From assembly GCA_026066175.1 (NCBI GenBank), contig GCA_026066175.1_4721.2: 64,000 nt of DNA. One strand, written 5' to 3'. The notes beneath the pieces were generated by a model. The model was not told the origin of the DNA. It saw nothing but the letters and a program-made list of their open reading frames with translations, and searched no databases. A program made the position numbers and the translations under genes. This document shows, piece by piece, positions 2,583 through 64,000 of this stretch (position 1 is the stretch's first letter; every line of letters begins with the position of its first letter). This stretch comes from a phage.

Positions 2583-4193
2583 ATGGACCCAAAACAGATA
2601 GCCATTAAGATTATTACGTTACTGTTTCGTAATGCACAATTGAACCATCCCGATCCCAGTACGATCGAACATGTTAAATCCGTCTTAGATAAAATCGAAC
2701 CCCCGAAAAACCATCTCACCGTTGATGTGGATAGAGAGGTTTTCAACAACCTGATGAACACCATTCATTGGATGTTGGAACAACCGTTATCGGAACCTTT
2801 CGATAAACAACAGTTGCTACAAAGGATACGTTTAGATTGCCTGGAACAAAGCCACGTTTACGAAATTCTCGCCGACGGATTGTACGATATCGAAGACGAT
2901 GCTCATATCAGTAAGGTCTGTTCGCTTTACTACAATGAATTACGTAATCTGATTACCCGTCGTCGTGTATTTGAAACCTTTAAAAACACGTACATGGATA
3001 TCAGTAACGGCCGCCTTGGGGACAAAGAATTTTTCGACGCGATGGCGAATTTGAAACTATCGCTAGATACCATCGAAATGGATACTGAAAACCCCGAAGA
3101 AATGTCCTGTATGATTGACGGCTTCATCGCTGATAGTGAAGACGATATTGAAAAAGTCGAACGTATGTTCGTTAAGGCGATGGAGCGTAACAGTCCTGAA
3201 GGGGGATTTGTCACCGGCTGGCAGGGGTTTAATAAAATGTTGGGGTCGGTCGGCGTATTACGTCGTGGTACTCTAGGATTGATTGGCGCGATGCAACACC
3301 GTAATAAATCAGGGGTGTTATTAAAACTTTTCACCCACCTGGCGTTGTACAATAAACCCCATTTCTTTTTTCCGGAGCGCGCAAAGAAAGCCTTATTGAT
3401 TCATCTCTCAACAGAGAACGAAGTTGAAGAAAACACGCTTCAAATCTACAAGAACATGCGAGAACAGGAAACAGGTGAATATGTCGATATTCGTAAGATT
3501 GACCCACGTGAAGCTTCACGCTATGTACTGAACGTTTTCAATAATGCGGGGTTCTCTGTCTGCATGCGTCGTGTTGATGGAATGAGCTATAAACAACTTG
3601 CTAACCTTATCGACCATTTTGAACGTATGGGTTATGAAGTTATGGCTTTGTTCATCGACTATCTAAAAATGTTCTCGTCAGAAGGATTAGATAGGAATGG
3701 GCCTACGGGCGCTTGGCTGCAAGAACTCTTCAACAAAGTACGTAACCTCTGTAGCGTTAAACGTATTTTAGGTATGACCGTACACCAGTTGTCTTCTGAT
3801 GCGAAGATGCGGGCACGTGATGGTAACGATGAAGAATTTGTTGACCAAGTCGCCGGTTTAAGTTACTGGGATGGATGTAAAGGGATTGACCGTGAGATTG
3901 ACCTTGAGGTAATTGTTGATATCGTTAAGGAACCTGGCAAACGTCAAAGCTGGCAGGTCTTTGCGCTAGGGAAAGACCGTCAACCGGATAACGGCTCAAC
4001 AAAACCTGAAGATAAACATTTTGCGATGCCGTTCCAAACCATCGGGATGCTTCCTGACGATTACGGTAAGAAAGCGGTGTATTGCCGCAAGGTTGGCGGA
4101 CAACCGGTCTCTGAAGGAGGCAAAGGTCCGTGGAACAAGTTTGATGAACATGCCGCACCGAGTAATGAACTACAATTTGATTTAGAATTCTAA
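2583..4193 (+). CDS. putative DnaB-like (SF4, RecA-fold) helicase homolog with deviant Walker A
   Basis: ATG at 2583 with AAAGGA SD (the listed 2499 start is GTG and would overlap the divergent gene). Motif order as in DnaB C-terminal domain: LIGAMQHRNKSG (P-loop-like, Asn in place of the conserved Gly), MALFIDYLKMF (Walker B / H2), TVHQLSSDAKMR (H3-like), GIDREIDLEVIV (H4-like). Confidence 0.6.
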   Translation: MDPKQIAIKIITLLFRNAQLNHPDPSTIEHVKSVLDKIEPPKNHLTVDVDREVFNNLMNTIHWMLEQPLSEPFDKQQLLQRIRLDCLEQSHVYEILADGLYDIEDDAHISKVCSLYYNELRNLITRRRVFETFKNTYMDISNGRLGDKEFFDAMANLKLSLDTIEMDTENPEEMSCMIDGFIADSEDDIEKVERMFVKAMERNSPEGGFVTGWQGFNKMLGSVGVLRRGTLGLIGAMQHRNKSGVLLKLFTHLALYNKPHFFFPERAKKALLIHLSTENEVEENTLQIYKNMREQETGEYVDIRKIDPREASRYVLNVFNNAGFSVCMRRVDGMSYKQLANLIDHFERMGYEVMALFIDYLKMFSSEGLDRNGPTGAWLQELFNKVRNLCSVKRILGMTVHQLSSDAKMRARDGNDEEFVDQVAGLSYWDGCKGIDREIDLEVIVDIVKEPGKRQSWQVFALGKDRQPDNGSTKPEDKHFAMPFQTIGMLPDDYGKKAVYCRKVGGQPVSEGGKGPWNKFDEHAAPSNELQFDLEF

Positions 4194-4218
4194 AACGCAA
4201 AAAAAAAATCGTACGGTT

Positions 4219-4250
4219 CCCTCCTCCAACCCGGAAGGGAAGGAGGAGGG
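4219..4250. terminator. conserved palindromic hairpin CCCTCCTCC-AACCCGGAAGGGAA-GGAGGAGGG between convergent genes
   Basis: 9-bp GC stem, internal AA/AA, CCC/GGG, GGAA loop; an A10 run at 4199-4208 gives a U-tract for the minus-strand transcript. Confidence 0.6.
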
Positions 4251-4267
4251 TTATGACCGTTATGGTG

Positions 4268-4594
4268 TTAACTTATCGTCATGAATTCCGTAGGTGAGAA
4301 TTTCCAACCGTTTTCATTGAGAAGCGTGTTAAGTTTCGCTGCAACGATAAGCCATGCGTGCATGGCTGTCACATCGTATTGGCGATTAACACGGCGTTGG
4401 TTTTCGATATCGATTTGCTCCCGTTCGGTGATGTTTGGGTAGAGCGCGACGGCGCTGGGCTTCCCTAACGCATCACTCATTACCGCCTGACATTCACTGA
4501 TGATGTTATTGAGATGATAATTGTAAACCGTTCCACGCATAACACGATGACGGCATTCAATAATAGCGTCGTAAATAATTTCTCTTGTTGTCAT
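4268..4594 (-). CDS. hypothetical protein (108 aa)
   Basis: ORF in the minus-strand block, start 6 nt after the upstream stop. Confidence 0.55.
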   Translation of the reverse strand: MTTREIIYDAIIECRHRVMRGTVYNYHLNNIISECQAVMSDALGKPSAVALYPNITEREQIDIENQRRVNRQYDVTAMHAWLIVAAKLNTLLNENGWKFSPTEFMTIS

Positions 4595-4600
4595 GATCGA

Positions 4601-5002
4601 TTAAAACACACGTTCGTTTTTAGCACGGGCATCCATAACCAAATCGTAGATACCAGCTGTTCGTAAACATTCTTCGTAATAACGGTGCGTACCTTCCTCC
4701 GCCATCCACGATAACCCACGACTATCGGCAACAATAACCAGTTTGTTATTGTTGAATGCGCATACCACACGGTAAGTCGCATTGTTGTTTGGATCACGTG
4801 TAATCAGTTCGTAAACACCATTAACCGGTTTACTGAATTCACCGTTCAGCGGAATAAGTTCCGTTGTACCTTCAGCAAACGTTACATTGATTGATGCTGG
4901 CTCTTTAGCAATGACGGTGTATTCCACGTTGTGTTCTTTACTGGTCATGATACCGAAATAAGAACTTACTGGAGAACGTGGTACACTAAGAATATTAAAC
5001 AT
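4601..5002 (-). CDS. hypothetical protein (133 aa)
   Basis: ATG start; same operon block. Confidence 0.6.
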   Translation of the reverse strand: MFNILSVPRSPVSSYFGIMTSKEHNVEYTVIAKEPASINVTFAEGTTELIPLNGEFSKPVNGVYELITRDPNNNATYRVVCAFNNNKLVIVADSRGLSWMAEEGTHRYYEECLRTAGIYDLVMDARAKNERVF

Positions 5003-55274: not shown

Positions 55275-55844
55275 TCAACGATTCTTCATCACTTTACCCA
55301 GGCTTTCGATATTATCCCAAAAGCGATTTTTACTTGGCGCATCGCCGACGATAACCGACATCAAATCGCGACGTTCACGACTGATGATGCCCTGTGATTT
55401 CCAGATCACCATCGTCCAGCAAGCTGCCAGAACGAACAGATGGTTGATGCTTGGTTTGGTTTGCGCAATGAACGCAAGCCATGCCCAGATACCGGTATAT
55501 ACTAATGTCACTAAAAAGAGAGATATTGTCGCAATGACCACAACGAAGTTTTGGACAGCGGGTTGATTAGCGTTATCCTGAATAGCGGTAAGATCGGGAA
55601 GATTACCTTCAACTGAACTCGTTTCATCAATTTCCAATTCTTCGATTTCTTTTCGTGTGTCAGGAGCTAATCCAGCATCATCGAGATGCTTTTTTAACCG
55701 CTGTATGCTTAATCGTTGACCGACAGGAATGTTGATGTTGTCGTAACTATTAAGCGCATCGACCAGGGAACGACCGTCCACCAACACCAAACTCGCGGTA
55801 CCCATCGTTTGCGGTTTTATTTTGTAAAGGTCTTTTACTTTCAT
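55275..55844 (-). CDS. predicted membrane protein, two C-terminal TM helices (189 aa)
   Basis: Hydrophobic segments VVVIATISLFLVTLVYTGIWAWLAFIA and LFVLAACWTMVIW. Confidence 0.7.
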   Translation of the reverse strand: MKVKDLYKIKPQTMGTASLVLVDGRSLVDALNSYDNINIPVGQRLSIQRLKKHLDDAGLAPDTRKEIEELEIDETSSVEGNLPDLTAIQDNANQPAVQNFVVVIATISLFLVTLVYTGIWAWLAFIAQTKPSINHLFVLAACWTMVIWKSQGIISRERRDLMSVIVGDAPSKNRFWDNIESLGKVMKNR

Positions 55845-55865
55845 GTAGCCACCACCTCCAACGTG

Positions 55866-58478
55866 TTATGCGTCTGGTGTAAAATCAAAAGGAATGTCCA
55901 TACGAATGATATCATAACGTTTTCCTAGGAAATAGAACTCTTCGGGAACCTGACCGGGAATGATGCTATCACCGATGAACTGCGGATACGCCCAGATGTA
56001 CTGAGTGAGTCCTTCGAACATATCCAGGTTATTTGCGTGGTTACCCATGATGCGTTTCCAGAGTTCGCGTTTATACGGTGTTTTAACATCGAACCCATAA
56101 AGCGGTGCAAGATCTTCACCAGGAACAAATCCCAGGTAATAGTGAATCTGGTTAACTGGGAAACCAAGCGTATCTCGCGGAATGGTGATCGCTTGCTCAG
56201 CCTTGGTGACATGTGTCTCAATAATCCAGTCATAGCACTCTGAATAGAACCGATCGAATTTCTCTGGATTATACCACGCTTTGGGAAGATTGAGTTTCTC
56301 CGTGAATGCATTCGACATGATCGTCGGCAAGAACGGAAGAACACCGGTTTTGATCTGCGTGTATTTCGATTTTACCCGGTTAACCAGATTCCAGCAACTG
56401 TATCCTAACTGTTCGTTACAAAACTCAACGTAGAGATCGTAGTCGCCACCGGATAACGGGTTGTTAATATCACCGATGTCTGCGGCATATTTGTCAGGAT
56501 ATTGGTTATTGAAAGCCAGTTTGGTTTGGTAGTCGTAGATACACGGTTTGTTGTTCGCCGTGTTGATCCACCACCAGGGTTCACCTACTTGTACACAAAT
56601 GTCCTGGACATGAGGATAGATGATATCAGCAAATGCTGTTAACACATCCCCTAACCACGCCATCGCATATTGGTTACACGGAGACAGCAACCAAGACGGC
56701 GGCGTGTATCCGGTTGCTGCGATATTCCCTTCCCAATCTTGCTGTGCCCACTCGAACGGACACGCTGTACTCATCAATTCGTAACTTAAACTGATGGTTA
56801 CAGAGAAATGGTGTTTTGCAGCGAGTGCGGCGAAAGCTTCATGCCATGCAATACAGGGCGGATTTAATACATCCGTGGTGTTCACCAGTAGCTTACCCGC
56901 ACTCGGCGTCCAGACGGTGTCGTAGAAATGCGACATTCCAACATAGTGTACTAATTCATCCTGATATCCCGCATACACCAGGTTCTCGAACACGCGTTCT
57001 GGCGTGATGTTATAATGGTCATCATAAGCGGTTATCGCACGAAGTTCGTGTGGTGCGCAGTGGTGACGATTAACGGTCATTTCCTGATACACCCCATCGA
57101 TAGGAAGAATCTCGATGGTTAAACCGAGGTCGATCGGTGTTTCCAGATAGGTCGTTTCAGTCGCATCTTCCTTATAATGTCGAGAACTCATGCTGAACAT
57201 CAACGACGTTACCGATTCAAGTTCGATGGGCTCGTCAGCATAGAACCCCGCCATTGCGTCATTAAAATCGATCGTCACGGTCGCGCTTGTACCGTCTTCA
57301 GAGACGTCTGTCGCATATCGGGTTAATGAGATATACTGACGGCTATCGTCTTTGTGTACGACGGTTAAAACCGGCGGGTTTTCGGTATCCGCAAAGTTAC
57401 GCTGATCGCCGGTAAACGTGACCTTTGCTTTAAAGATCAAACCGAGTAACGACGTCATGGGATCATACGCGATACAACCGTGATCCAGCGTATCCGTTGT
57501 CCGCCATTCTACCCCGACCAACCCGTTAGCGGTATGACATCGCATATACGCGTTAAGAACCATGTCTTCACTGACGACCGCGAAGTTCTCTGTTGATTGA
57601 CCGTTGATAATCCAATACATCGGTTGCCAAAGATTGCGAGTACCTTTTGCATAGCGGTAGGTTGGTGCACCTTTGGGGTTGCCATTATTAAGATGAAATA
57701 CGGCAGTACCTTGATAATGGTCGTTCGTATTAATCGGAACACTGTAAGCATCACCGAGATCCGTACGTTCCACCTTCGTAATGGCTGCGTTTTCAAACAA
57801 CCCACGTAGCGCTGGTAAACCGATATCTGCAGGTGCGTTTTCACGACGTATCGCATCGGCAATACGATGAGCTAAGGCTGGGTAAATGACTTCACCTTGT
57901 TGCAGGTTCGCAAGCCCCGCAAAGCGATCGGGATCGATACCGGCAATTAACAACTCGATATCACCTTTCGTTCTATCGTCGTGAAGATATTTCAGTCCGG
58001 TAAGGTCGAGATGTTGAATAAGCGACAATAGGTTGTATTTACGGTTTTCGACGGTTAGTTCGAGATCGCCTGCCCAGACCAGACTTTCGTCATCGGCTGT
58101 TAAAGTAACGGTTTGTCGACCTGTGATGGATGTCGTCGTTATCTTATTTAATTGCTCTTGCAGGAAGTCTGTTGCAAGGTCAAAGGCAACGCCGTAGCGA
58201 TCGGCGACAGTTTGCATGATTTCACGTAACTGGGTATCTTCTTCAATGATAACCTTGATGGGTATTCCCAAGAACGCTTTAGCGAGGTCCCGTTTAACCG
58301 TCGAGACAAACACGGATTTGTAATATCGGCTTCCATCTTTCCCTTTAAAAAGAATGGAGGTTGTTTCGGGTGACGATAGAACACGTGCAAATTCAACATC
58401 GTCGAAGGTAAGAGAAAGTCCGTTTTTCTCGTTGGTCAATCTTAGTATTTCATTCTGCGCGGTTTCATGTAACTTCAT
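55866..58478 (-). CDS. virion protein with fibre-adaptor-like N-terminal module (870 aa)
   Basis: N-terminal 150 aa paralogous to the 63370-63897 product (KRDLAKAFLGIPIKVIIEE vs RRDIAKAFLGIPIKIVLES; LVWAGDLELTVEN vs MVWRGQLDLTVTN). Confidence 0.85.
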   Translation of the reverse strand: MKLHETAQNEILRLTNEKNGLSLTFDDVEFARVLSSPETTSILFKGKDGSRYYKSVFVSTVKRDLAKAFLGIPIKVIIEEDTQLREIMQTVADRYGVAFDLATDFLQEQLNKITTTSITGRQTVTLTADDESLVWAGDLELTVENRKYNLLSLIQHLDLTGLKYLHDDRTKGDIELLIAGIDPDRFAGLANLQQGEVIYPALAHRIADAIRRENAPADIGLPALRGLFENAAITKVERTDLGDAYSVPINTNDHYQGTAVFHLNNGNPKGAPTYRYAKGTRNLWQPMYWIINGQSTENFAVVSEDMVLNAYMRCHTANGLVGVEWRTTDTLDHGCIAYDPMTSLLGLIFKAKVTFTGDQRNFADTENPPVLTVVHKDDSRQYISLTRYATDVSEDGTSATVTIDFNDAMAGFYADEPIELESVTSLMFSMSSRHYKEDATETTYLETPIDLGLTIEILPIDGVYQEMTVNRHHCAPHELRAITAYDDHYNITPERVFENLVYAGYQDELVHYVGMSHFYDTVWTPSAGKLLVNTTDVLNPPCIAWHEAFAALAAKHHFSVTISLSYELMSTACPFEWAQQDWEGNIAATGYTPPSWLLSPCNQYAMAWLGDVLTAFADIIYPHVQDICVQVGEPWWWINTANNKPCIYDYQTKLAFNNQYPDKYAADIGDINNPLSGGDYDLYVEFCNEQLGYSCWNLVNRVKSKYTQIKTGVLPFLPTIMSNAFTEKLNLPKAWYNPEKFDRFYSECYDWIIETHVTKAEQAITIPRDTLGFPVNQIHYYLGFVPGEDLAPLYGFDVKTPYKRELWKRIMGNHANNLDMFEGLTQYIWAYPQFIGDSIIPGQVPEEFYFLGKRYDIIRMDIPFDFTPDA

Positions 58479-58500
58479 TGAAAACCTCTGCCCTTTAGAA

Positions 58501-59142
58501 TTAGATGTACTGCTTACCGCCCACGAAGGACGTTAGCCAGTTCCCGCTGACGAGCTGTGACGCCCAACCTGGAACAGCTTTACCATTCTGGCTCATGATG
58601 TTACCACACCAACCAGGGAATCCGGGACGGATGTAATAGAAAGTTAAATTGTAGAGATGGCAATTCCATACCGCAACGTTATGTTTACCAGAAACCGCTT
58701 TAAAGACAAACGCGACAGGTAAAGGAGACGATAACAATTCGGTCACAGGGACAGCTGACCAGTTCGCATTCGCGTTCCATGGTTGCCATGTATGGCTACG
58801 CGAGTCGCAATATACGTTACCGTTGCTACCGCGTCCGCCCGCGTTCCACCAAAGCGATGGACTCATGTTCTTAAGTGATGTAAATTGCTGCGGTGGGATA
58901 TTCGGAATGATGACAGGGTTAGTACCTTGTCCATGTTTCTTTTCTTTTGCGTTCACATATCCGTTTATCGATTCAAGGTATTTAGTACCAGGATAATTGT
59001 TCTGGACTTGTGTTGCAATATCACGAACGTCGAACGTCCAGCAGATCATGGTGTTATAGTAAGCGTCGGTGTTGTCGTACCATGCGTTACCATCTTGTAA
59101 ACGTGCGCCGCTATTCGGTGTTTTATCTGTGCTTATAGCCAT
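58501..59142 (-). CDS. hypothetical protein, paralog of 59152 gene product (213 aa)
   Basis: C-terminal 40 aa nearly identical between paralogs (GFPGWCGNIMSQNGKAVPGWASQLVSGNWLTSFVGGKQY). Confidence 0.75.
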   Translation of the reverse strand: MAISTDKTPNSGARLQDGNAWYDNTDAYYNTMICWTFDVRDIATQVQNNYPGTKYLESINGYVNAKEKKHGQGTNPVIIPNIPPQQFTSLKNMSPSLWWNAGGRGSNGNVYCDSRSHTWQPWNANANWSAVPVTELLSSPLPVAFVFKAVSGKHNVAVWNCHLYNLTFYYIRPGFPGWCGNIMSQNGKAVPGWASQLVSGNWLTSFVGGKQYI

Positions 59143-59151
59143 GGTGTTGTC

Positions 59152-59919
59152 CTATACGTTGATGGTTGAGATGTCGGATGCCGGATGTGTGTTGTCATCC
59201 GGCGGTACGTACAGAAACACCCACAGATAAAACAGTAGCTTCTCTAACTTCAATTTAATTGAAGTTAGATATTGCTTACCTCCAACAAACGACGTTAGCC
59301 AGTTACCTGAAACAAGCTGCGATGCCCAGCCGGGTACAGCCTTACCGTTTTGACTCATCACGTTACCTGCCCAGCCTGGAAAACCCGGTCGGAAAATATA
59401 TACTTGAATATGCGTCAGTGCGTTATCATTACCACCGCCAACAGCAACGTTACGACTACCAGACGACGGGAAATATTCTTTTAAGAACAGGGGATCGGTT
59501 GCTAATAAAGAAGCAGGCCAAGGATTTGCAGATGCATCAACGTCGAATTCGGTCCAACTCCAATGACGGTTTGTGTCGAACCATGTTGACGTACCACCAC
59601 CTCTCACAGCAAGATTGCGCGCATCACGGACATTATAGATCGATTCGATGTTACGCCATCCGCCTTTCGCGGCGTTTGCTGCATAGCAAATCGCATTACC
59701 ACCATTCTTCTTCTCGAAAACGGTTCGTTTGATATGAACACGGTCGATAAACGCCTCACCGTATTTGTTGACGAGTGTTTGTGCGATATCACGAAGATCG
59801 TGCATATGGAAAGCGATGTCTTCGTTATGAAACCATGTTGTTGCATTCCAAACAGTACCGTTTGGTTCAGCACACATCGATCGGATATTGTTGCGTTGAT
59901 TAATCGCGATAAAACCCAT
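59152..59919 (-). CDS. hypothetical protein, paralog of 58501 gene product (about 256 aa)
   Basis: ATG at 59919 (GAGGT SD) preferred; alternative ATG at 59970 abuts the hairpin. Confidence 0.7.
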   Translation of the reverse strand: MGFIAINQRNNIRSMCAEPNGTVWNATTWFHNEDIAFHMHDLRDIAQTLVNKYGEAFIDRVHIKRTVFEKKNGGNAICYAANAAKGGWRNIESIYNVRDARNLAVRGGGTSTWFDTNRHWSWTEFDVDASANPWPASLLATDPLFLKEYFPSSGSRNVAVGGGNDNALTHIQVYIFRPGFPGWAGNVMSQNGKAVPGWASQLVSGNWLTSFVGGKQYLTSIKLKLEKLLFYLWVFLYVPPDDNTHPASDISTINV

Positions 59920-59974
59920 TGTATACCTCGTTCCTATTCTCAAAAAGGAAATTTCATACGATGACGCCATAGCG

Positions 59975-60006
59975 GCCCCTCCCGACCCGTAAGGGAAGGG
60001 AGGGGC
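59975..60006 (-). terminator. conserved palindromic hairpin, variant GCCCCTCCC-GACCCGTAAGGGAA-GGGAGGGGC
   Basis: Same architecture with GTAA loop. Confidence 0.5.
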
Positions 60007-60018
60007 GCACACTATGAA

Positions 60019-60525
60019 CTATTTACCGATAACTTCAACAGAATCAGGATCCGCGATTAACGCACGATCGGTTGAGCAGTTGAAGAAGACCATACCAACA
60101 CCATCACCATTCGAGTTCAGGGTTGAACTTACGTAAGACAATGTTGGTTTATTCATACGGTAGAAGCGTTCGCTGGTGGTGGTATTAAAGCCTAGATCAA
60201 CGTAGTCTTTTACCGTGGTGTACAACTGTGTGGATTCGAACACGGTTACCGGAGAGTCCACCGTAAACTGACTACCCTCGTCGACAACCAGAACTTTATC
60301 GTTCCAGATTTCAGTGGTTGAAAACTTCGGTTTCCAATGTTCGAACTCTTGGGTCGCACCCCAGCAAGAATAAACAGCAAGATTGCTGTTCTTCTCAACA
60401 GGTTTCAACCCCACCAGTTGCGTCAGGTCTTTATCCAGGTTCGGTAAGCCTTCCAGCGTAGCGCATCCACCCAGAGAAAGTACCATCAACATACCAAGAA
60501 TAATCGCGCAAAGTTTTTTCATCAT
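60019..60525 (-). CDS. putative outer-membrane lipoprotein (168 aa)
   Basis: Signal peptide MMKKLCAIILGMLMVLSLGG followed by Cys (lipobox-like LGGC, Ala at +2); AAGGAA SD. Confidence 0.7.
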   Translation of the reverse strand: MMKKLCAIILGMLMVLSLGGCATLEGLPNLDKDLTQLVGLKPVEKNSNLAVYSCWGATQEFEHWKPKFSTTEIWNDKVLVVDEGSQFTVDSPVTVFESTQLYTTVKDYVDLGFNTTTSERFYRMNKPTLSYVSSTLNSNGDGVGMVFFNCSTDRALIADPDSVEVIGK

Positions 60526-60531
60526 TAGATT

Positions 60532-60566
60532 TCCTTATGTGTTAACGGAAGTGACTTCCATAAGGA
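60532..60566 (-). promoter_or_regulatory. hairpin TCCTTATG...CATAAGGA overlapping the lipoprotein SD
   Basis: 8-bp outer stem; the 3-prime arm on the minus strand contains the AAGGA SD of the lipoprotein gene. Confidence 0.35.
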
Positions 60567-60573
60567 TTGATGA

Positions 60574-63363
60574 TTACTTTTTGAGCGCTTTAAGTTCTTC
60601 TTCCAACGCTTCCACTTTCGTCGTAAGCTTCTGTACTTGTTTGATTAATGGAACCACCAAACGTTCGTACATAACACCTTCAGCAACCAACCCATTAGAA
60701 GAAACGATGGCGGGGTCATCTTCTTCGGTTGCATCACGCCAGTGCACGTATTGTGGTGCTATCTCACCGACCTCTTCGGCAATCAACCCATACCAACCCC
60801 AATCCTTGTTGTCCGCTTCGCAGGTAGAACGATACCAAACAGGACGCATCTCCAATACTTTATCCGCTTGTTCATCCGTGATATTCTCGATATCTTTCTT
60901 ATAGCGACGTGACGACGTTGAACGGAACACATTGTTGATCCCAGCAACAGGACTGATATACATATTAGCCCCGCTGGTTGTAGTGCTAATGTCCCATACC
61001 GCAAATCCGCCGTTACTCCCATTTTTTACTACCAACGTATTGGCAATAATGTCCAGGTTATTGTCGTACCCGGTTAACTGGTTTTCCGTTACATAACTGG
61101 ATAGGTTAACCGAGTAGTTCTTACTGTTATAACAACGACGCCATCCTGGGCTGTTGGTGCTGCCGTTATAGTTGTCGTAGCTATAAATGAACTCGGAGTT
61201 GGTTTTCGCCCCACTGACGGAAGACGTGGTAGCGGTTGTAACACGGATGGTGTAGTTTGTCATCCCGAAGCTAACGACCTCGATAACAGCGCCAGCCAGA
61301 GGGATGATCCCGCATTTGGTTTCACTGTCTGGGATGTATGCGCTATCGGCAGCAGCGAAGGAGCAACGTGCGACCCAAGCACGAGTGTTGAAGGCTCCAT
61401 GGTTTTGCAGTAATGTGATAAACGAGGACGTTGTAATCGAGCTGTTATTATCACCGGTGATCAACCAGCCGGTTGGACATGCAGTTGCACCAACGTTTTT
61501 CGCTGTTAGCGTGATGTTCTGTGATCCGTCGAAGGCTACGCCGCTAATAGTACGCGCAGTCTGTAGCTTCGTCGCCGTTGCTGCGTTCCCTGACGTGTTC
61601 TGATTACCTGCTTTGTTCACGCCTGGTAAATCAATGTTGGCGGTTCCATCGAAGCTGACGCCGCCTATTGTTCTTGCTGTAGCGAGTTTCGTTGCTGTGG
61701 TTGCAGCATTACCAACCTTTAACCATTCGCCCCATGGACCATCGATGCCGTTCCATGATGCTGTTAAACTACGTACGTAAATATTTCCGGTACGTACAGT
61801 GTAACGTTGCGTTCCACCGAACTGTCCAGCTGGGAGCACTTCGATATAACCTACCGCGTTTGCTTCAGGGAAATTGTGGGCAACATCAGCATTCGTTGAT
61901 GTTTGTTTAGACCAAATACCTACGGACTCCTCTACCGGACCGTAGGTATCCAGATTTGCGTCGGTGGGGAGCTGTCCTCGAAAACGTCGGAATAATGATG
62001 CTGTTAACCCCAACGTTGTTTGCATTCCTTGAACGCTTGACTGCGATAAAAGCGCCCGCGCTGTCGACGTAATGGCAGCTAAAGCAACCTTGTCGGCTCC
62101 GGTGAAAAATGGGAATTTGTTCGCCGAGGTCGTTAAGCCTGAAAGGGCTGTTAGTAATGCGTTAAGGGGTTGTTTTCCGGCTAACGCGTTAGTTATCGTC
62201 GTTGCGAAATTAGGATCGTTGCCTAAAGCTTGAGCCAGCTCATTAAGCGTATTTAGCGCTTCTGGAGACGAGTCAATCAGCGACGCGATAGCACGCATTA
62301 CAAATTCCGTGTTGGCAATCTGTTGACTGCTATCATTCTCTGCAGCCGTTGGCGCTGCTGGGATACCGGTGAATACAGGGTTATTAAGATCTGCCTTGAG
62401 GGCGATGAGACGTCTAAGCGCTTCAACATCGACTCTCAGGTTTTCCCATCCGACGAGATAACCTTCATCGGTTGTGTGATAACGGTTGTACCAAAAATCG
62501 CCATTAACACCGAAAAAGAATATTCCCTTCTCTTCGTATTGTGGGCCAGAACTGTTCCGCGATGAGCTAATGTATTTTATTTCGATAAGGCCGTTGAATA
62601 CCACTCCTGGGATAATTTTGTCGTTTCCATGCAATTGTGATACCTGGTACGCCCCCGGCGTTGCGGTTCTAATCCACGTTAAGAATTCCGATGTTCCAGC
62701 GTTACCGCTAAAATGCTTGGCGTCGGTGAGTATCGCACCAAAACCGAACATACCGGGTAAAGCAACTCGTCCATCGGTACGGTCACGAATATCTGTCGCA
62801 ACAACGGGCAATTGTTTACGAACGTCATTAACCGCTTTAGGTGTTGCTGATTTTGTCTCGTCGTCGCTCTCAGTATCATTGCTCAGGATGGTCAGTCCTC
62901 GAGTATCTGTGGTCGCATCAGGAAGAAACGCGTTATCCAACACCTTAAGCTGTATTGCATCCGTGTTACTAACAGCAACATACACCTGGCAGTTAAGAAC
63001 GCTGGTTGCGCCTTCGGTGGGCACAGGCTTATATCTTTCTGGTGCGCTGCAGACGGCGACCAGAACACCTTGATCGTCATACAGACCGATCTCACGTACC
63101 CAGAACCCACCTTGACTGGTGGGAATAATGCCTTCAACAATAATCCGGGTTGTGTCGTCAACATCAATGCGGATGTTGGAAACTTCCCCACGATAAACTT
63201 CGTGTATAAGTGCCGTTTGGCTAGCATCGGGGGTTGGTGTAGAGCCGTTACTGTCACCAACGGCAAAATGCGTGATTTTTAGTTTCTCACCGTCAGGAAG
63301 TAATGCTGCGGTGATACGTTCTGCGCCTTTATCGGTAATAACCGTTTTATATGTTGTACTCAT
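60574..63363 (-). CDS. tail fibre protein with C-terminal S74-type intramolecular chaperone domain (929 aa)
   Basis: N-terminus MSTTYKTVITDKGAERITAAL...ITHFAVGDSNG...EVYRGEV...VEGIIPTSQGGFWVREIGLYD matches the phage tail-fibre N-terminal domain; C-terminus SSRRYKKDIENI...LEMRPVWYR...YGLIAEEVGEIAPQYV...MYERLVVPLIKQVQKL matches the self-cleaving chaperone domain. Confidence 0.9.
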   Translation of the reverse strand: MSTTYKTVITDKGAERITAALLPDGEKLKITHFAVGDSNGSTPTPDASQTALIHEVYRGEVSNIRIDVDDTTRIIVEGIIPTSQGGFWVREIGLYDDQGVLVAVCSAPERYKPVPTEGATSVLNCQVYVAVSNTDAIQLKVLDNAFLPDATTDTRGLTILSNDTESDDETKSATPKAVNDVRKQLPVVATDIRDRTDGRVALPGMFGFGAILTDAKHFSGNAGTSEFLTWIRTATPGAYQVSQLHGNDKIIPGVVFNGLIEIKYISSSRNSSGPQYEEKGIFFFGVNGDFWYNRYHTTDEGYLVGWENLRVDVEALRRLIALKADLNNPVFTGIPAAPTAAENDSSQQIANTEFVMRAIASLIDSSPEALNTLNELAQALGNDPNFATTITNALAGKQPLNALLTALSGLTTSANKFPFFTGADKVALAAITSTARALLSQSSVQGMQTTLGLTASLFRRFRGQLPTDANLDTYGPVEESVGIWSKQTSTNADVAHNFPEANAVGYIEVLPAGQFGGTQRYTVRTGNIYVRSLTASWNGIDGPWGEWLKVGNAATTATKLATARTIGGVSFDGTANIDLPGVNKAGNQNTSGNAATATKLQTARTISGVAFDGSQNITLTAKNVGATACPTGWLITGDNNSSITTSSFITLLQNHGAFNTRAWVARCSFAAADSAYIPDSETKCGIIPLAGAVIEVVSFGMTNYTIRVTTATTSSVSGAKTNSEFIYSYDNYNGSTNSPGWRRCYNSKNYSVNLSSYVTENQLTGYDNNLDIIANTLVVKNGSNGGFAVWDISTTTSGANMYISPVAGINNVFRSTSSRRYKKDIENITDEQADKVLEMRPVWYRSTCEADNKDWGWYGLIAEEVGEIAPQYVHWRDATEEDDPAIVSSNGLVAEGVMYERLVVPLIKQVQKLTTKVEALEEELKALKK

Positions 63364-63369
63364 GGCGTT

Positions 63370-63897
63370 TTATCCCGGGTAAATAGCGATGACATCACCA
63401 ATGACAGTTGCCGCACCAGCGTATAAATAAGCTGGAGATGCCTCACGTTGGTTTGTCACGGTAAGATCCAATTGTCCACGCCAAACCATGGAGGTATTCG
63501 CGATGGGAATCGAGATCTTCTTGGATGTGTCGTCACGAAAATCAATGACAGTAGCAAGGATAGCTGAATCAAAATCGACATCGGTTTCAAAGATGAATCC
63601 GTACTGATCTGAAATAGCTTGTATAACCGCTCTTATAGTTGTTGTTTCAACCGACTCCAAAACGATTTTTATCGGTATCCCTAGAAACGCTTTCGCGATA
63701 TCACGTCGTGCGTAAGTGATAAAACTTTCACCACACCACCTTGTTCCTTCATTTGCTGTGACGATCACTTTTGCCCTGTTAGCACCAGAACTCCCATCCA
63801 GGGTTAAAGTGAGATCGGAGTTACTGAACACGCTACCGTTACGTTGGTTTATCAACGTAATCAGTTCGTCTTTCCACGGCAGGTAAAGTGAACGCAT
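63370..63897 (-). CDS. fibre-adaptor-like N-terminal module protein (about 175 aa)
   Basis: ATG at 63897 with GGAGGAGGG SD (listed start is TTG); paralogous to the N-terminus of the 870-aa protein. Confidence 0.7.
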   Translation of the reverse strand: MRSLYLPWKDELITLINQRNGSVFSNSDLTLTLDGSSGANRAKVIVTANEGTRWCGESFITYARRDIAKAFLGIPIKIVLESVETTTIRAVIQAISDQYGFIFETDVDFDSAILATVIDFRDDTSKKISIPIANTSMVWRGQLDLTVTNQREASPAYLYAGAATVIGDVIAIYPG

Positions 63898-63937
63898 AAG
63901 CGCACCCTCCTCCAACAATCAAATTAAGATGCAAAAC

Positions 63938-63965
63938 GCCTCGAAACCGGAGTGCGATTCGAGGC
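63938..63965 (-). terminator. hairpin GCCTCGAA-ACCGGAGTGCGA-TTCGAGGC
   Basis: Perfect 8-bp stem upstream of the 63897 start; likely terminates the gene beyond the window end. Confidence 0.4.
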
Positions 63966-64000
63966 AAACGTAAACAGTCTTAACGACCGCATAAAATTCC

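Follow-up and report, generated by a model that had tools for sequence, protein, structure and literature searches.

Two proteins of 870 and 175 amino acids (hereafter A and F), encoded near a tail-fibre gene, share an N-terminal domain of the DUF7941 family. We consider it probable that this domain is a plug that docks accessory proteins at the baseplate, that A is a receptor-binding protein and F a minor partner, and that the N-terminal module recombines. The finding itself adds little, as the DUF7941 family and the Goslar orthologues of both proteins are already known. The swapped fibre tip and the hybrid N-module gene described below are additions of the present analysis.

The window, meaning the whole 64-kb stretch of DNA that was analysed, comes from a Goslar-like phage, with 89-90% identity to Goslar across 25 kb and across the fibre locus. 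Since Goslar is a nucleus-forming E. coli jumbo phage, we class the window phage as a chimallivirus. The open reading frames of A, F and the 929-aa fibre (E) were confirmed at the coordinates in Table 1, and the gene order is the same as in Goslar. At the protein level A is 96% identical to gp86 and F 87% identical to gp91, which are among the 10 Goslar DUF7941 proteins (Basu et al., bioRxiv 10.64898/2026.04.21.720040, April 2026).

Table 1. Genes and domains of the locus, with positions counted from the first nucleotide of the window
Feature	Position	Strand	Basis or remark
A, 870-aa protein	55866-58478	(-)	orthologue of Goslar gp86
A residues 285-870, receptor-binding-type region, N4-sheath-related	55866..57626	(-)	PF23844, PF23845, PDB 9lc0
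A residues 151-277, DUF7941 linker plus C-terminal globular domain	57648..58028	(-)	Pfam, AF2; no F counterpart
A residues 1-150, DUF7941 N-terminal domain	58029..58478	(-)	BLASTP vs F, PF25613, AF2, Foldseek
B, 213 aa	58501-59142	(-)	paralogue of C; between fibre cassette and A
C, up to 286 aa	59152-60012	(-)	paralogue of B
D, 168-aa predicted lipoprotein, Goslar gp88 orthologue	60019..60525	(-)	signal peptide ending LSLGGC; phrog_9559
E, 929-aa tail fibre, P2 gpH / P1 S type	60574-63363	(-)	
E distal module, about residues 633-929	60574..61467	(-)	exchanged relative to Goslar
F, 175-aa protein	63370-63897	(-)	orthologue of Goslar gp91
F residues 151-175 plus stop, conserved tail (…SPAYLYAGAATVIGDVIAIYPG)	63370..63447	(-)	AF2, orthologues, phrog_2935
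F residues 1-150, DUF7941 N-terminal domain	63448..63897	(-)	PF25613 model positions 3-155, AF2, Foldseek

The two N-terminal modules align significantly. Residues 8-147 of A and 9-151 of F are 31% identical (55% positives, BLASTP E=2e-23), and phmmer gives an E-value of about 1e-22. Judged by sequence, this likeness is far beyond chance. Both proteins also exceed the gathering cutoff of 27 bits for PF25613 (DUF7941), A with 137.3 bits (E=9e-40) and F with 61.4 bits (E=1.3e-16). The original prediction took the whole 175-aa product to be paralogous to the N-terminus of A. This holds for the N-terminal domain of F (~145 aa) but not for the whole product, as paralogy stops there and the last ~25 residues (151-175) do not align to A. 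All three parts of DUF7941 are present in A, namely the N-terminal domain, a flexible linker and, C-terminally, a globular domain, and the match spans residues 2-277 (model positions 2-275 of 276). F consists only of the N-terminal domain and the 25-aa tail, lacking the DUF7941 C-terminal domain.

The module had been described as present on two different genes. Both genes do carry it, but A and F are two of about 10 paralogues genome-wide. Within the 64-kb window, an HMM built from ten paralogues finds only A and F. Counterparts of Goslar gp22, gp23, gp31, gp33 and gp34 lie before the window start and those of gp92 and gp93 just past its end, while gp161 was not located. A homologue search with A residues 1-280 returned only three truncated relatives. 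More useful was an exhaustive profile search of 1.84 billion representative proteins, which yielded 167 relatives of the module. Among the 150 of these that were listed, nearly all have the module at residues ~1-150, and lengths range from 54 to 1703 aa. C-terminal domains in the family include DUF285/LRR, an N4-type TIM barrel, the Gp38 adhesin and beta-propeller/Kelch domains. DUF7941 has been reported only from chimalliviruses (Basu et al.).

AF2 models of F and of A residues 1-285 have overall pLDDT values of 89 and 90, respectively, rising above 95 in the N-terminal domain of F and at residues 1-150 of A. Their secondary-structure elements occur in the same order. For each model the sole PDB match with E<=0.001 was 9xqd_0 (Foldseek; F: E=1.2e-6, TM 0.56/0.64, probability 1.00; A: E=1.1e-6, TM 0.62 normalised to the target, probability 1.00), which we identified as PHIKZ127 (phiKZ gp127). 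Searching the PDB by sequence with F alone or with a profile returned nothing, and gp127 was found by fold comparison only. According to the phiKZ atlas (PMC13250141), every star lobe of the outer peripheral baseplate carries gp127 where the gp139 band ends. The gp127 chain is a backbone model, built with the help of AlphaFold3 and fitted to a map of medium resolution. The predicted shared attachment module is supported and corresponds to the DUF7941 N-terminal domain, with a baseplate position known only for gp127, a homologue of 13-17% sequence identity.

Basu et al. resolved no DUF7941 density in the Goslar peripheral baseplate. They obtained head-to-tail DUF7941 oligomers with AF3, proposed assembly at the peripheral baseplate, saw gp22 filaments by negative stain and fitted a gp126-gp127 heterodimer into the phiKZ density. 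This head-to-tail filament model rests on predictions and one recombinant protein, and the preprint has not been peer reviewed. Copies per Goslar virion were ~4.5 for gp86, ~4.9 for gp92 and ~4.8 for gp93, consistent with six sites; these values come from a single label-free (LFQ) mass-spectrometry sample and describe orthologues rather than the window phage.

We propose that the ~150-aa N-terminal domain would act as a plug by which accessory proteins dock at the outer (peripheral) baseplate. Alternatively, the plug may dock head-to-tail onto a second DUF7941 protein, at its linker and C-terminal domain. A would then be a plug, linker and DUF7941 C-terminal domain bearing an N4 gp64/gp65-related domain, anchored at the baseplate, and F would be a plug with a conserved, flexible 25-aa tail, tightly coupled to a P2/P1-type fibre gene. 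The conserved N-module may also serve as a substrate for homologous recombination, through which C-terminal host-range cassettes would be exchanged or deleted. Our own analysis provides the homology and fold, the position of the module at the N-terminus, the cassette variation and the hybrid gene. From the literature come the baseplate location (phiKZ gp127), the head-to-tail assembly (AlphaFold3 and gp22 filaments) and the copy numbers (Goslar).

In the model of A, pLDDT dips to 75-85 at residues 150-170, followed by a confidently modelled domain at 171-265. Beyond it, the C-terminal region matches PF23844 (N-domain, E=1.2e-10) and PF23845 (TIM barrel, E=9e-85), as well as N4 Gp64 (PDB 9lc0, E=9e-31) and N4 gp65 (E=1e-7). 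One copy of the module is indeed fused to a distal domain, which comprises the N4 gp64/gp65 sheath N-domain and TIM barrel. A is an N4-sheath-like protein and not a tail fibre. Residues 285-837 are the part of A that resembles phage N4 gp65/gp64 (PDB 9lc0, 9yf4), with matches to the NCTSP N-domain and TIM-barrel families; the receptor-binding protein of N4 is gp65 (PMC13434306). The N4 proteins enclose a non-contractile podovirus tail in a six-fold sheath and bind NfrA. In A, by contrast, the domains are carried by a DUF7941 anchor and the jumbo phage has a contractile tail; the remainder of the ten gp65 domains is missing from A, as is a separate partner of the gp64 kind. The C-terminus of Goslar gp86 has been described as carbohydrate-binding or hydrolase-type (Basu et al.). 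Considering its architecture of plug, linker, DUF7941 C-terminal domain and N4-type domain, we take A most likely to be a receptor- or glycan-binding protein that is anchored at the baseplate, with roughly six copies per virion.

Since F contains only the N-terminal domain and the tail, it is a short-type member of the family, like Goslar gp23 and phiKZ gp126. All three match the short-type phrog_2935, and the F match includes most of the tail. Neither gp23 nor gp126 adjoins a fibre gene. As in the window, phiKZ pairs a full-length DUF7941 protein (gp127) with a short one (gp126, 147 aa). The phiKZ pair differs in adjoining wedge and portal genes rather than a fibre gene, and in lacking a receptor-binding C-terminal domain. 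F starts at an ATG preceded by GGAGGAGGG, a good ribosome-binding site. Its tail is disordered when F is modelled alone (AF2 pLDDT 44-58). Orthologues as distant as 42% identity retain the tail and have a reading frame that is intact at 173-176 aa. The dN/dS of the F gene is 0.16 between the window and Goslar and 0.10 between Goslar and related locus L003, indicating purifying selection.

The neighbouring fibre E carries PF12571 at residues 1-141 (E=2.5e-42), Phage_fiber_2 and, at residues 817-873, Peptidase_S74 (Pfam). A PF12571 N-terminus, fibre repeats and an in-cis C-terminal chaperone identify it as a fibre of the P2 gpH / P1 S type. As originally described, the short DUF7941 copy lies immediately upstream: only 6 nt separate the F stop codon from the fibre ATG, in the same frame. 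With 6-8 nt in between, an F-type gene directly precedes a PF12571 fibre gene in Goslar, L003-5, L006 and L010 as well as in the window; L009 has this order too, with an F orthologue of 42% identity and a gap of 68 nt. The adjacency is kept in six lineages, the exception being L012, which has F without a fibre gene. An IMG/VR scan for more F-type loci gave three loci only. The best F matches in Erwinia and Serratia chimalliviruses are baseplate-cluster DUF7941 paralogues rather than fibre-linked genes, and therefore provide no independent test of the pairing.

The same-frame 6-nt arrangement recurs in Goslar, L006 and L010. Stop-codon read-through from F into the fibre was nevertheless rejected as a conserved mechanism, given a TAA stop and the gaps in L003 (8 nt) and L009 (68 nt).

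The original prediction also made F a separate adaptor for the fibre. This is not supported as stated, conserved adjacency being the only support. Goslar virions contain about 1.2 gp91 (0.8-1.9; 2 peptides) against about 43 gp90 (29-68; Goslar Table S4, the same single LFQ sample), and F belongs to the short class with gp23 and gp126, neither of which is beside fibre genes. A comparison of fused and split arrangements in relatives found no DUF7941-PF12571 fusion among 53 family members of at least 380 aa. These same observations make it doubtful, if possible, that F is a dedicated adaptor whose DUF7941 domain plugs into the baseplate or DUF7941 network and whose 25-aa tail holds the PF12571 domain of the fibre. 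Such an adaptor would serve a fibre type borrowed from P2/P1-like phages, for which the baseplate of a chimallivirus would offer no docking site of its own. In its favour, the F-fibre pair persists where gp92/gp93 are absent (e.g. L006), the F tail is conserved and F is under purifying selection. F and fibre residues 1-145 also diverge alike (87%/87% identity to Goslar, 63%/74% to L003), with the fibre shaft showing the opposite pattern, but linkage alone can yield both the adjacency and the shared divergence. L012 keeps F without a fibre gene; as this loss is probably a recent deletion, it is weak evidence against an adaptor. More broadly, it is conceivable but rather unlikely that short F-type proteins are couplers, with an N-domain inserted into the DUF7941/peripheral-baseplate network, a 25-aa tail capturing the PF12571 N-terminus of a fibre acquired horizontally from P2/P1-like phages, and paralogous N-modules doubling as recombination hot spots for host-range cassette exchange. 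If true, this would reveal the means by which a jumbo phage mounts a foreign fibre on an unrelated baseplate.

T4 gp63 offers a functional comparison for another reading, in which F, as a non-structural or sub-stoichiometric assembly factor, would assist in fixing the fibre to the peripheral baseplate and would then for the most part be released. Such a role would fit the tight translational coupling of the F and fibre genes, the very low copy number in Goslar virions and purifying selection on F. We regard it as improbable, since the N-terminal domain of F folds like a structural component of the baseplate, Goslar already has a classical Tfa chaperone (gp89) and the window fibre has an intramolecular S74 chaperone. 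It is very improbable indeed that F is a functionless stump of a former DUF7941 fusion gene cut by insertion of the fibre cassette. Recombination within N-modules does make truncated or hybrid genes, and the DUF7941 C-terminal domain is missing from F. However, we rejected a decaying remnant on the dN/dS of 0.10-0.16, and this purifying selection brings the stump reading close to refutation. The intact reading frame and conserved tail of the orthologues, the good ribosome-binding site and the gp91 peptides detected in Goslar virions also speak against it. Rather than a stoichiometric adaptor of the fibre, F is most likely a cap or minor partner within the network of docked DUF7941 proteins. 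A generic chain-member role leaves the F-fibre adjacency unexplained, which counts against this preferred reading. Unlike the homology, fold and module position, the exact partner of F is something we infer.

Module shuffling at host-range loci, also anticipated from the sequence, is borne out by the swapped tip of the fibre and by an F-type gene that is a natural hybrid. Residues 1-623 of E are 78% identical to Goslar gp90, while the tip has no counterpart in the gp90 tip and is 87% identical to the L003 fibre tip. The Goslar fibre ends in a P1 S-like tip followed by the Tfa gene gp89, whereas the window phage has an S74-chaperone tip. In L006 and L012, the F-type gene is a hybrid of two N-modules. 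Over the 5' ~200 nt it shares about 90% identity with the neighbouring 584-aa DUF7941-DUF285 gene, and the remainder is over 95% identical to the window F, with the crossover at the RRDIAKAF motif. This pattern indicates that the gene formed by recombination between two N-modules. Neither the gp91-gp90 adjacency nor N-module recombination is discussed by Basu et al.

Nucleus-forming jumbo phages appear to use the DUF7941 plug to carry varied host-recognition domains on their very large baseplate. Plug carriers would thus be receptor-binding candidates, here the N4-sheath-like protein A, and knowing them helps host-range prediction and the engineering of Goslar-like phages. Phages of the CBA120/G7C type, with branched tailspikes, and the Klebsiella jumbo phage phiKp24 follow the same logic, with several receptor-binding proteins per virion that combine a conserved N-terminal docking module with variable distal domains; their anchor folds are unrelated to DUF7941.

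A promoter and terminator scan of positions 55500-64000 gave no enrichment; as such phages transcribe with RNA polymerases of their own, this result is uninformative. Pfam and PHROG searches returned no match for either B or C, which are 38% identical to each other (BLASTP E=5e-36), with nearly identical last ~45 aa. C is an extra gp87 paralogue relative to Goslar. The putative lipoprotein D is conserved in every related locus examined, including L003-L006, L010 and L012.

The 870-aa protein A and the 175-aa protein F share a homologous N-terminal domain of about 150 residues. A residues 8-147 align with F residues 9-151 at 31% identity, a similarity far beyond chance (BLASTP E=2e-23; phmmer E about 1e-22). 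The original prediction had placed the whole of F in this paralogy, which holds for the N-terminal domains but not for F's final 25 residues, which fall outside the alignment. By Pfam, A residues 2-277 cover the full DUF7941 model (PF25613), while F matches only its first 155 positions. No third copy of the module was found in the 64-kb window with an HMM built from ten paralogues. Among Goslar-like phages, a separate subcluster is made up of the N-domains of A, of F and of a 584-aa DUF7941-DUF285 protein, which score 74-114 bits against each other, 40-60 bits against gp22 and below 36 bits against the remainder.

At 89-90% identity, the tail-fibre locus and the window's first 25 kb match the chimallivirus Escherichia phage vB_EcoM_Goslar, a jumbo phage that forms a nucleus and whose gene numbers we use unless phiKZ or N4 is named. 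A and F are orthologous to gp86 (96% amino-acid identity) and gp91 (87%), respectively, and gp90 is the counterpart of the fibre E. Between E and A lie D (gp88 orthologue), an additional paralogue C, and B (gp87 orthologue). All predicted ORF positions and sizes were reproduced exactly, as was the location of F directly upstream of the fibre gene.

Features of the tail-fibre locus
Feature	Position	Strand	Description
A	55866-58478	-	870 aa
B	58501-59142	-	213 aa
C	59152-60012	-	ORF up to 286 aa
D	60019-60525	-	168-aa predicted lipoprotein, signal peptide ending LSLGGC, between fibre gene and B/C
E	60574-63363	-	929-aa fibre; start 6 nt past the TAA stop of F
F	63370-63897	-	175 aa; ATG start preceded by GGAGGAGGG

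F and the fibre gene share a reading frame, separated at 63364-63372 (minus strand) by TAA plus two codons. This in-frame spacing recurs in Goslar and the related loci L006 and L010 but is absent from L003 (8-nt gap) and L009 (68-nt gap), which rules out a read-through fusion as a conserved feature.

AlphaFold2 models from family alignments were confident for both F (pLDDT 89; above 95 for residues 1-150, below 60 for the tail 151-175) and A residues 1-285 (pLDDT 90; its N-domain is followed by a softer linker, residues 150-170, and a C-terminal domain, residues 171-265), and the order of secondary structures is the same in the two N-domains. Each model had one significant fold match in the PDB, chain 0 of 9xqd (E about 1e-6, probability 1.00), which is PHIKZ127 by sequence. 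That chain was built as an AlphaFold3-assisted backbone model and is therefore evidence of location rather than of atomic detail. Each star lobe of the outer peripheral baseplate has gp127 capping its gp139 band in the phiKZ atlas (PMC13250141). The predicted shared attachment module is identified as a DUF7941 N-domain with a fold match to an outer-peripheral-baseplate protein.

In A, as predicted, the module is fused to a distal part, comprising the N-domain (285-442) and TIM barrel (476-837) of the non-contractile tail sheath family (Pfam). Against PDB 9lc0, the C-terminus of A matched phage N4 Gp64 (E=9e-31) and gp65 (E=1e-7). N4 gp65 is the receptor-binding sheath protein and N4 gp64 its minor partner (PMC13434306).

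A profile search of 1.84 billion representative proteins returned 167 relatives of the module. The module spans residues ~1-150 in almost every one of the 150 listed. By length, most belong to one of three classes: N-domain plus short tail (about 160-190 aa), full DUF7941 (about 270-300 aa) or fusions (380-1703 aa). Fusion partners include DUF285/BspA-type LRR, the N4-type TIM barrel, the T-even Gp38 adhesin and beta-propeller/Kelch domains. In one metagenomic representative (P0138, 1537 aa), DUF7941 N-modules occur together with a T-even-type Gp38 tail-fibre adhesin domain (residues 306-528), which independently supports the view that the module carries receptor-binding domains.

The family has been described as chimallivirus-specific, with Goslar members gp22, 23, 31, 33, 34, 86, 91, 92, 93 and 161; head-to-tail oligomers are predicted in which one protomer's linker and C-terminal domain sit on the next N-domain, gp22 forms filaments by negative stain, and a phiKZ gp126-gp127 heterodimer was fitted into phiKZ density (Basu et al., bioRxiv 10.64898/2026.04.21.720040). 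For the 87-96% identical orthologues, published work already covers the paralogy, the family, where it is likely located and the fact that the gp86 C-terminus is of a carbohydrate-binding type, so the finding is already known. The remaining interest lies in the unexplained F-fibre coupling and the evidence for recombination.

A second pair of a DUF7941 gene and a large tail protein gene lies just past position 64000, where the window ends (L001 17133-21573, in Goslar); there gp93 (276 aa, full DUF7941) is directly upstream of gp92 (1198 aa). Pfam itself gave no DUF7941 match in gp92, whose assignment rests on HMM searches and AlphaFold (Basu et al., bioRxiv 10.64898/2026.04.21.720040). The estimates for gp86, gp92 and gp93, each about 5 copies per virion, are consistent with six sites (Basu et al. 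Table S4), and the numbers for gp93 and gp92 fit a 1:1 pair there.

We propose, as the probable mechanism, that the shared module is a plug docking proteins to the peripheral baseplate and into the DUF7941 network. In this reading A is anchored in the baseplate, in roughly six copies per virion, and binds a receptor or glycan, and F is a functional short-type member, a minor partner or cap, with another DUF7941 N-domain or the fibre as candidate partners of its tail.

The original prediction instead made F a separate adaptor that attaches the fibre. This role is not established, and we regard it as a live minority hypothesis, possible but rather unlikely. In six lineages the gene next upstream of a PF12571 fibre gene is of F type, a pairing kept in L009 (with a 42%-identical orthologue) and in L006, from which gp92/gp93 are absent. 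Purifying selection acts on F (dN/dS 0.10-0.16), whose tail is conserved and which shares a divergence pattern with the fibre's first 145 residues but not with the fibre shaft. However, adjacency and common divergence can both stem from linkage alone, hence the minority standing. Goslar virion mass spectrometry gave estimates of ~1.2 gp91 (2 peptides) versus ~43 gp90 (Basu et al. Table S4). The PF12571 fibre N-terminus occurred in none of the 53 long relatives scanned, so the comparison of fused and split arrangements yielded no fused DUF7941-fibre protein. F shares its short-type class with gp23 and phiKZ gp126, which have no fibre-gene linkage. L012 keeps F and a Tfa-like gene without a fibre gene; this is weak evidence, as the fibre gene was probably lost recently or through an artefact of assembly. 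That F is a released assembly factor seems improbable, and a functionless stump, contradicted by the selection on F, is very improbable. We favour F as a functional short-type DUF7941 member.

The predicted module shuffling was borne out, through a fibre-tip swap, variable DUF7941 gene content and a hybrid F-type gene. E residues 1-623 are 78% identical to gp90, but the tips differ: that of Goslar is P1 S-like and accompanied by Tfa, whereas the window phage, like L003 and L006, has an S74 intramolecular-chaperone tip. L003-L005 carry an additional DUF7941-DUF285 gene just upstream of F, and gp92/gp93 are missing from L006. The hybrid gene is found in L006 (5426-5956) and L012 (3871-4419; compare L003 8147-8700). 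Over its first ~200 nt (5' third) it matches the 5' end of the adjacent 584-aa DUF7941-DUF285 gene at about 90% identity, and over the remaining 3' two thirds it is more than 95% identical to the window F, with the crossover within the conserved RRDIAKAF motif. This resembles a deletion via recombination between paralogous N-modules, which therefore occurs in nature. The N-module probably also promotes cassette exchange via homologous recombination.

The Goslar-like contig L012 (IMGVR_UViG_3300045988_173921, 3871-4900) contains no fibre ORF at all: a Tfa-like ORF (MSTSYAVIENG…) begins 7 nt past the F stop, followed by the lipoprotein, 213-aa and 870-aa genes. Either this variant without a fibre exists in nature or it is an artefact of assembly.

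B and C are paralogues (38% identity, E=5e-36) with no match in Pfam or PHROG, and their last ~45 aa are almost identical (RPGFPGW.GN.MSQNGKAVPGWASQLVSGNWLTSFVGGKQY). C extends ~37 aa beyond the point where B stops, across a 12-bp perfect palindrome at 59243-59269. Goslar has one gene of this type (gp87) whereas the window phage has two, as do L003-L005 (255 and 213 aa). The orthologue of D, gp88, was estimated at about 740 copies per virion preparation (Basu et al. Table S4), and the same preprint (bioRxiv 10.64898/2026.04.21.720040) includes it in its list of abundant proteins whose function is unknown. A lipoprotein so abundant in purified virions is odd; gp88 could be a real virion component or carry-over from co-purifying membrane vesicles.
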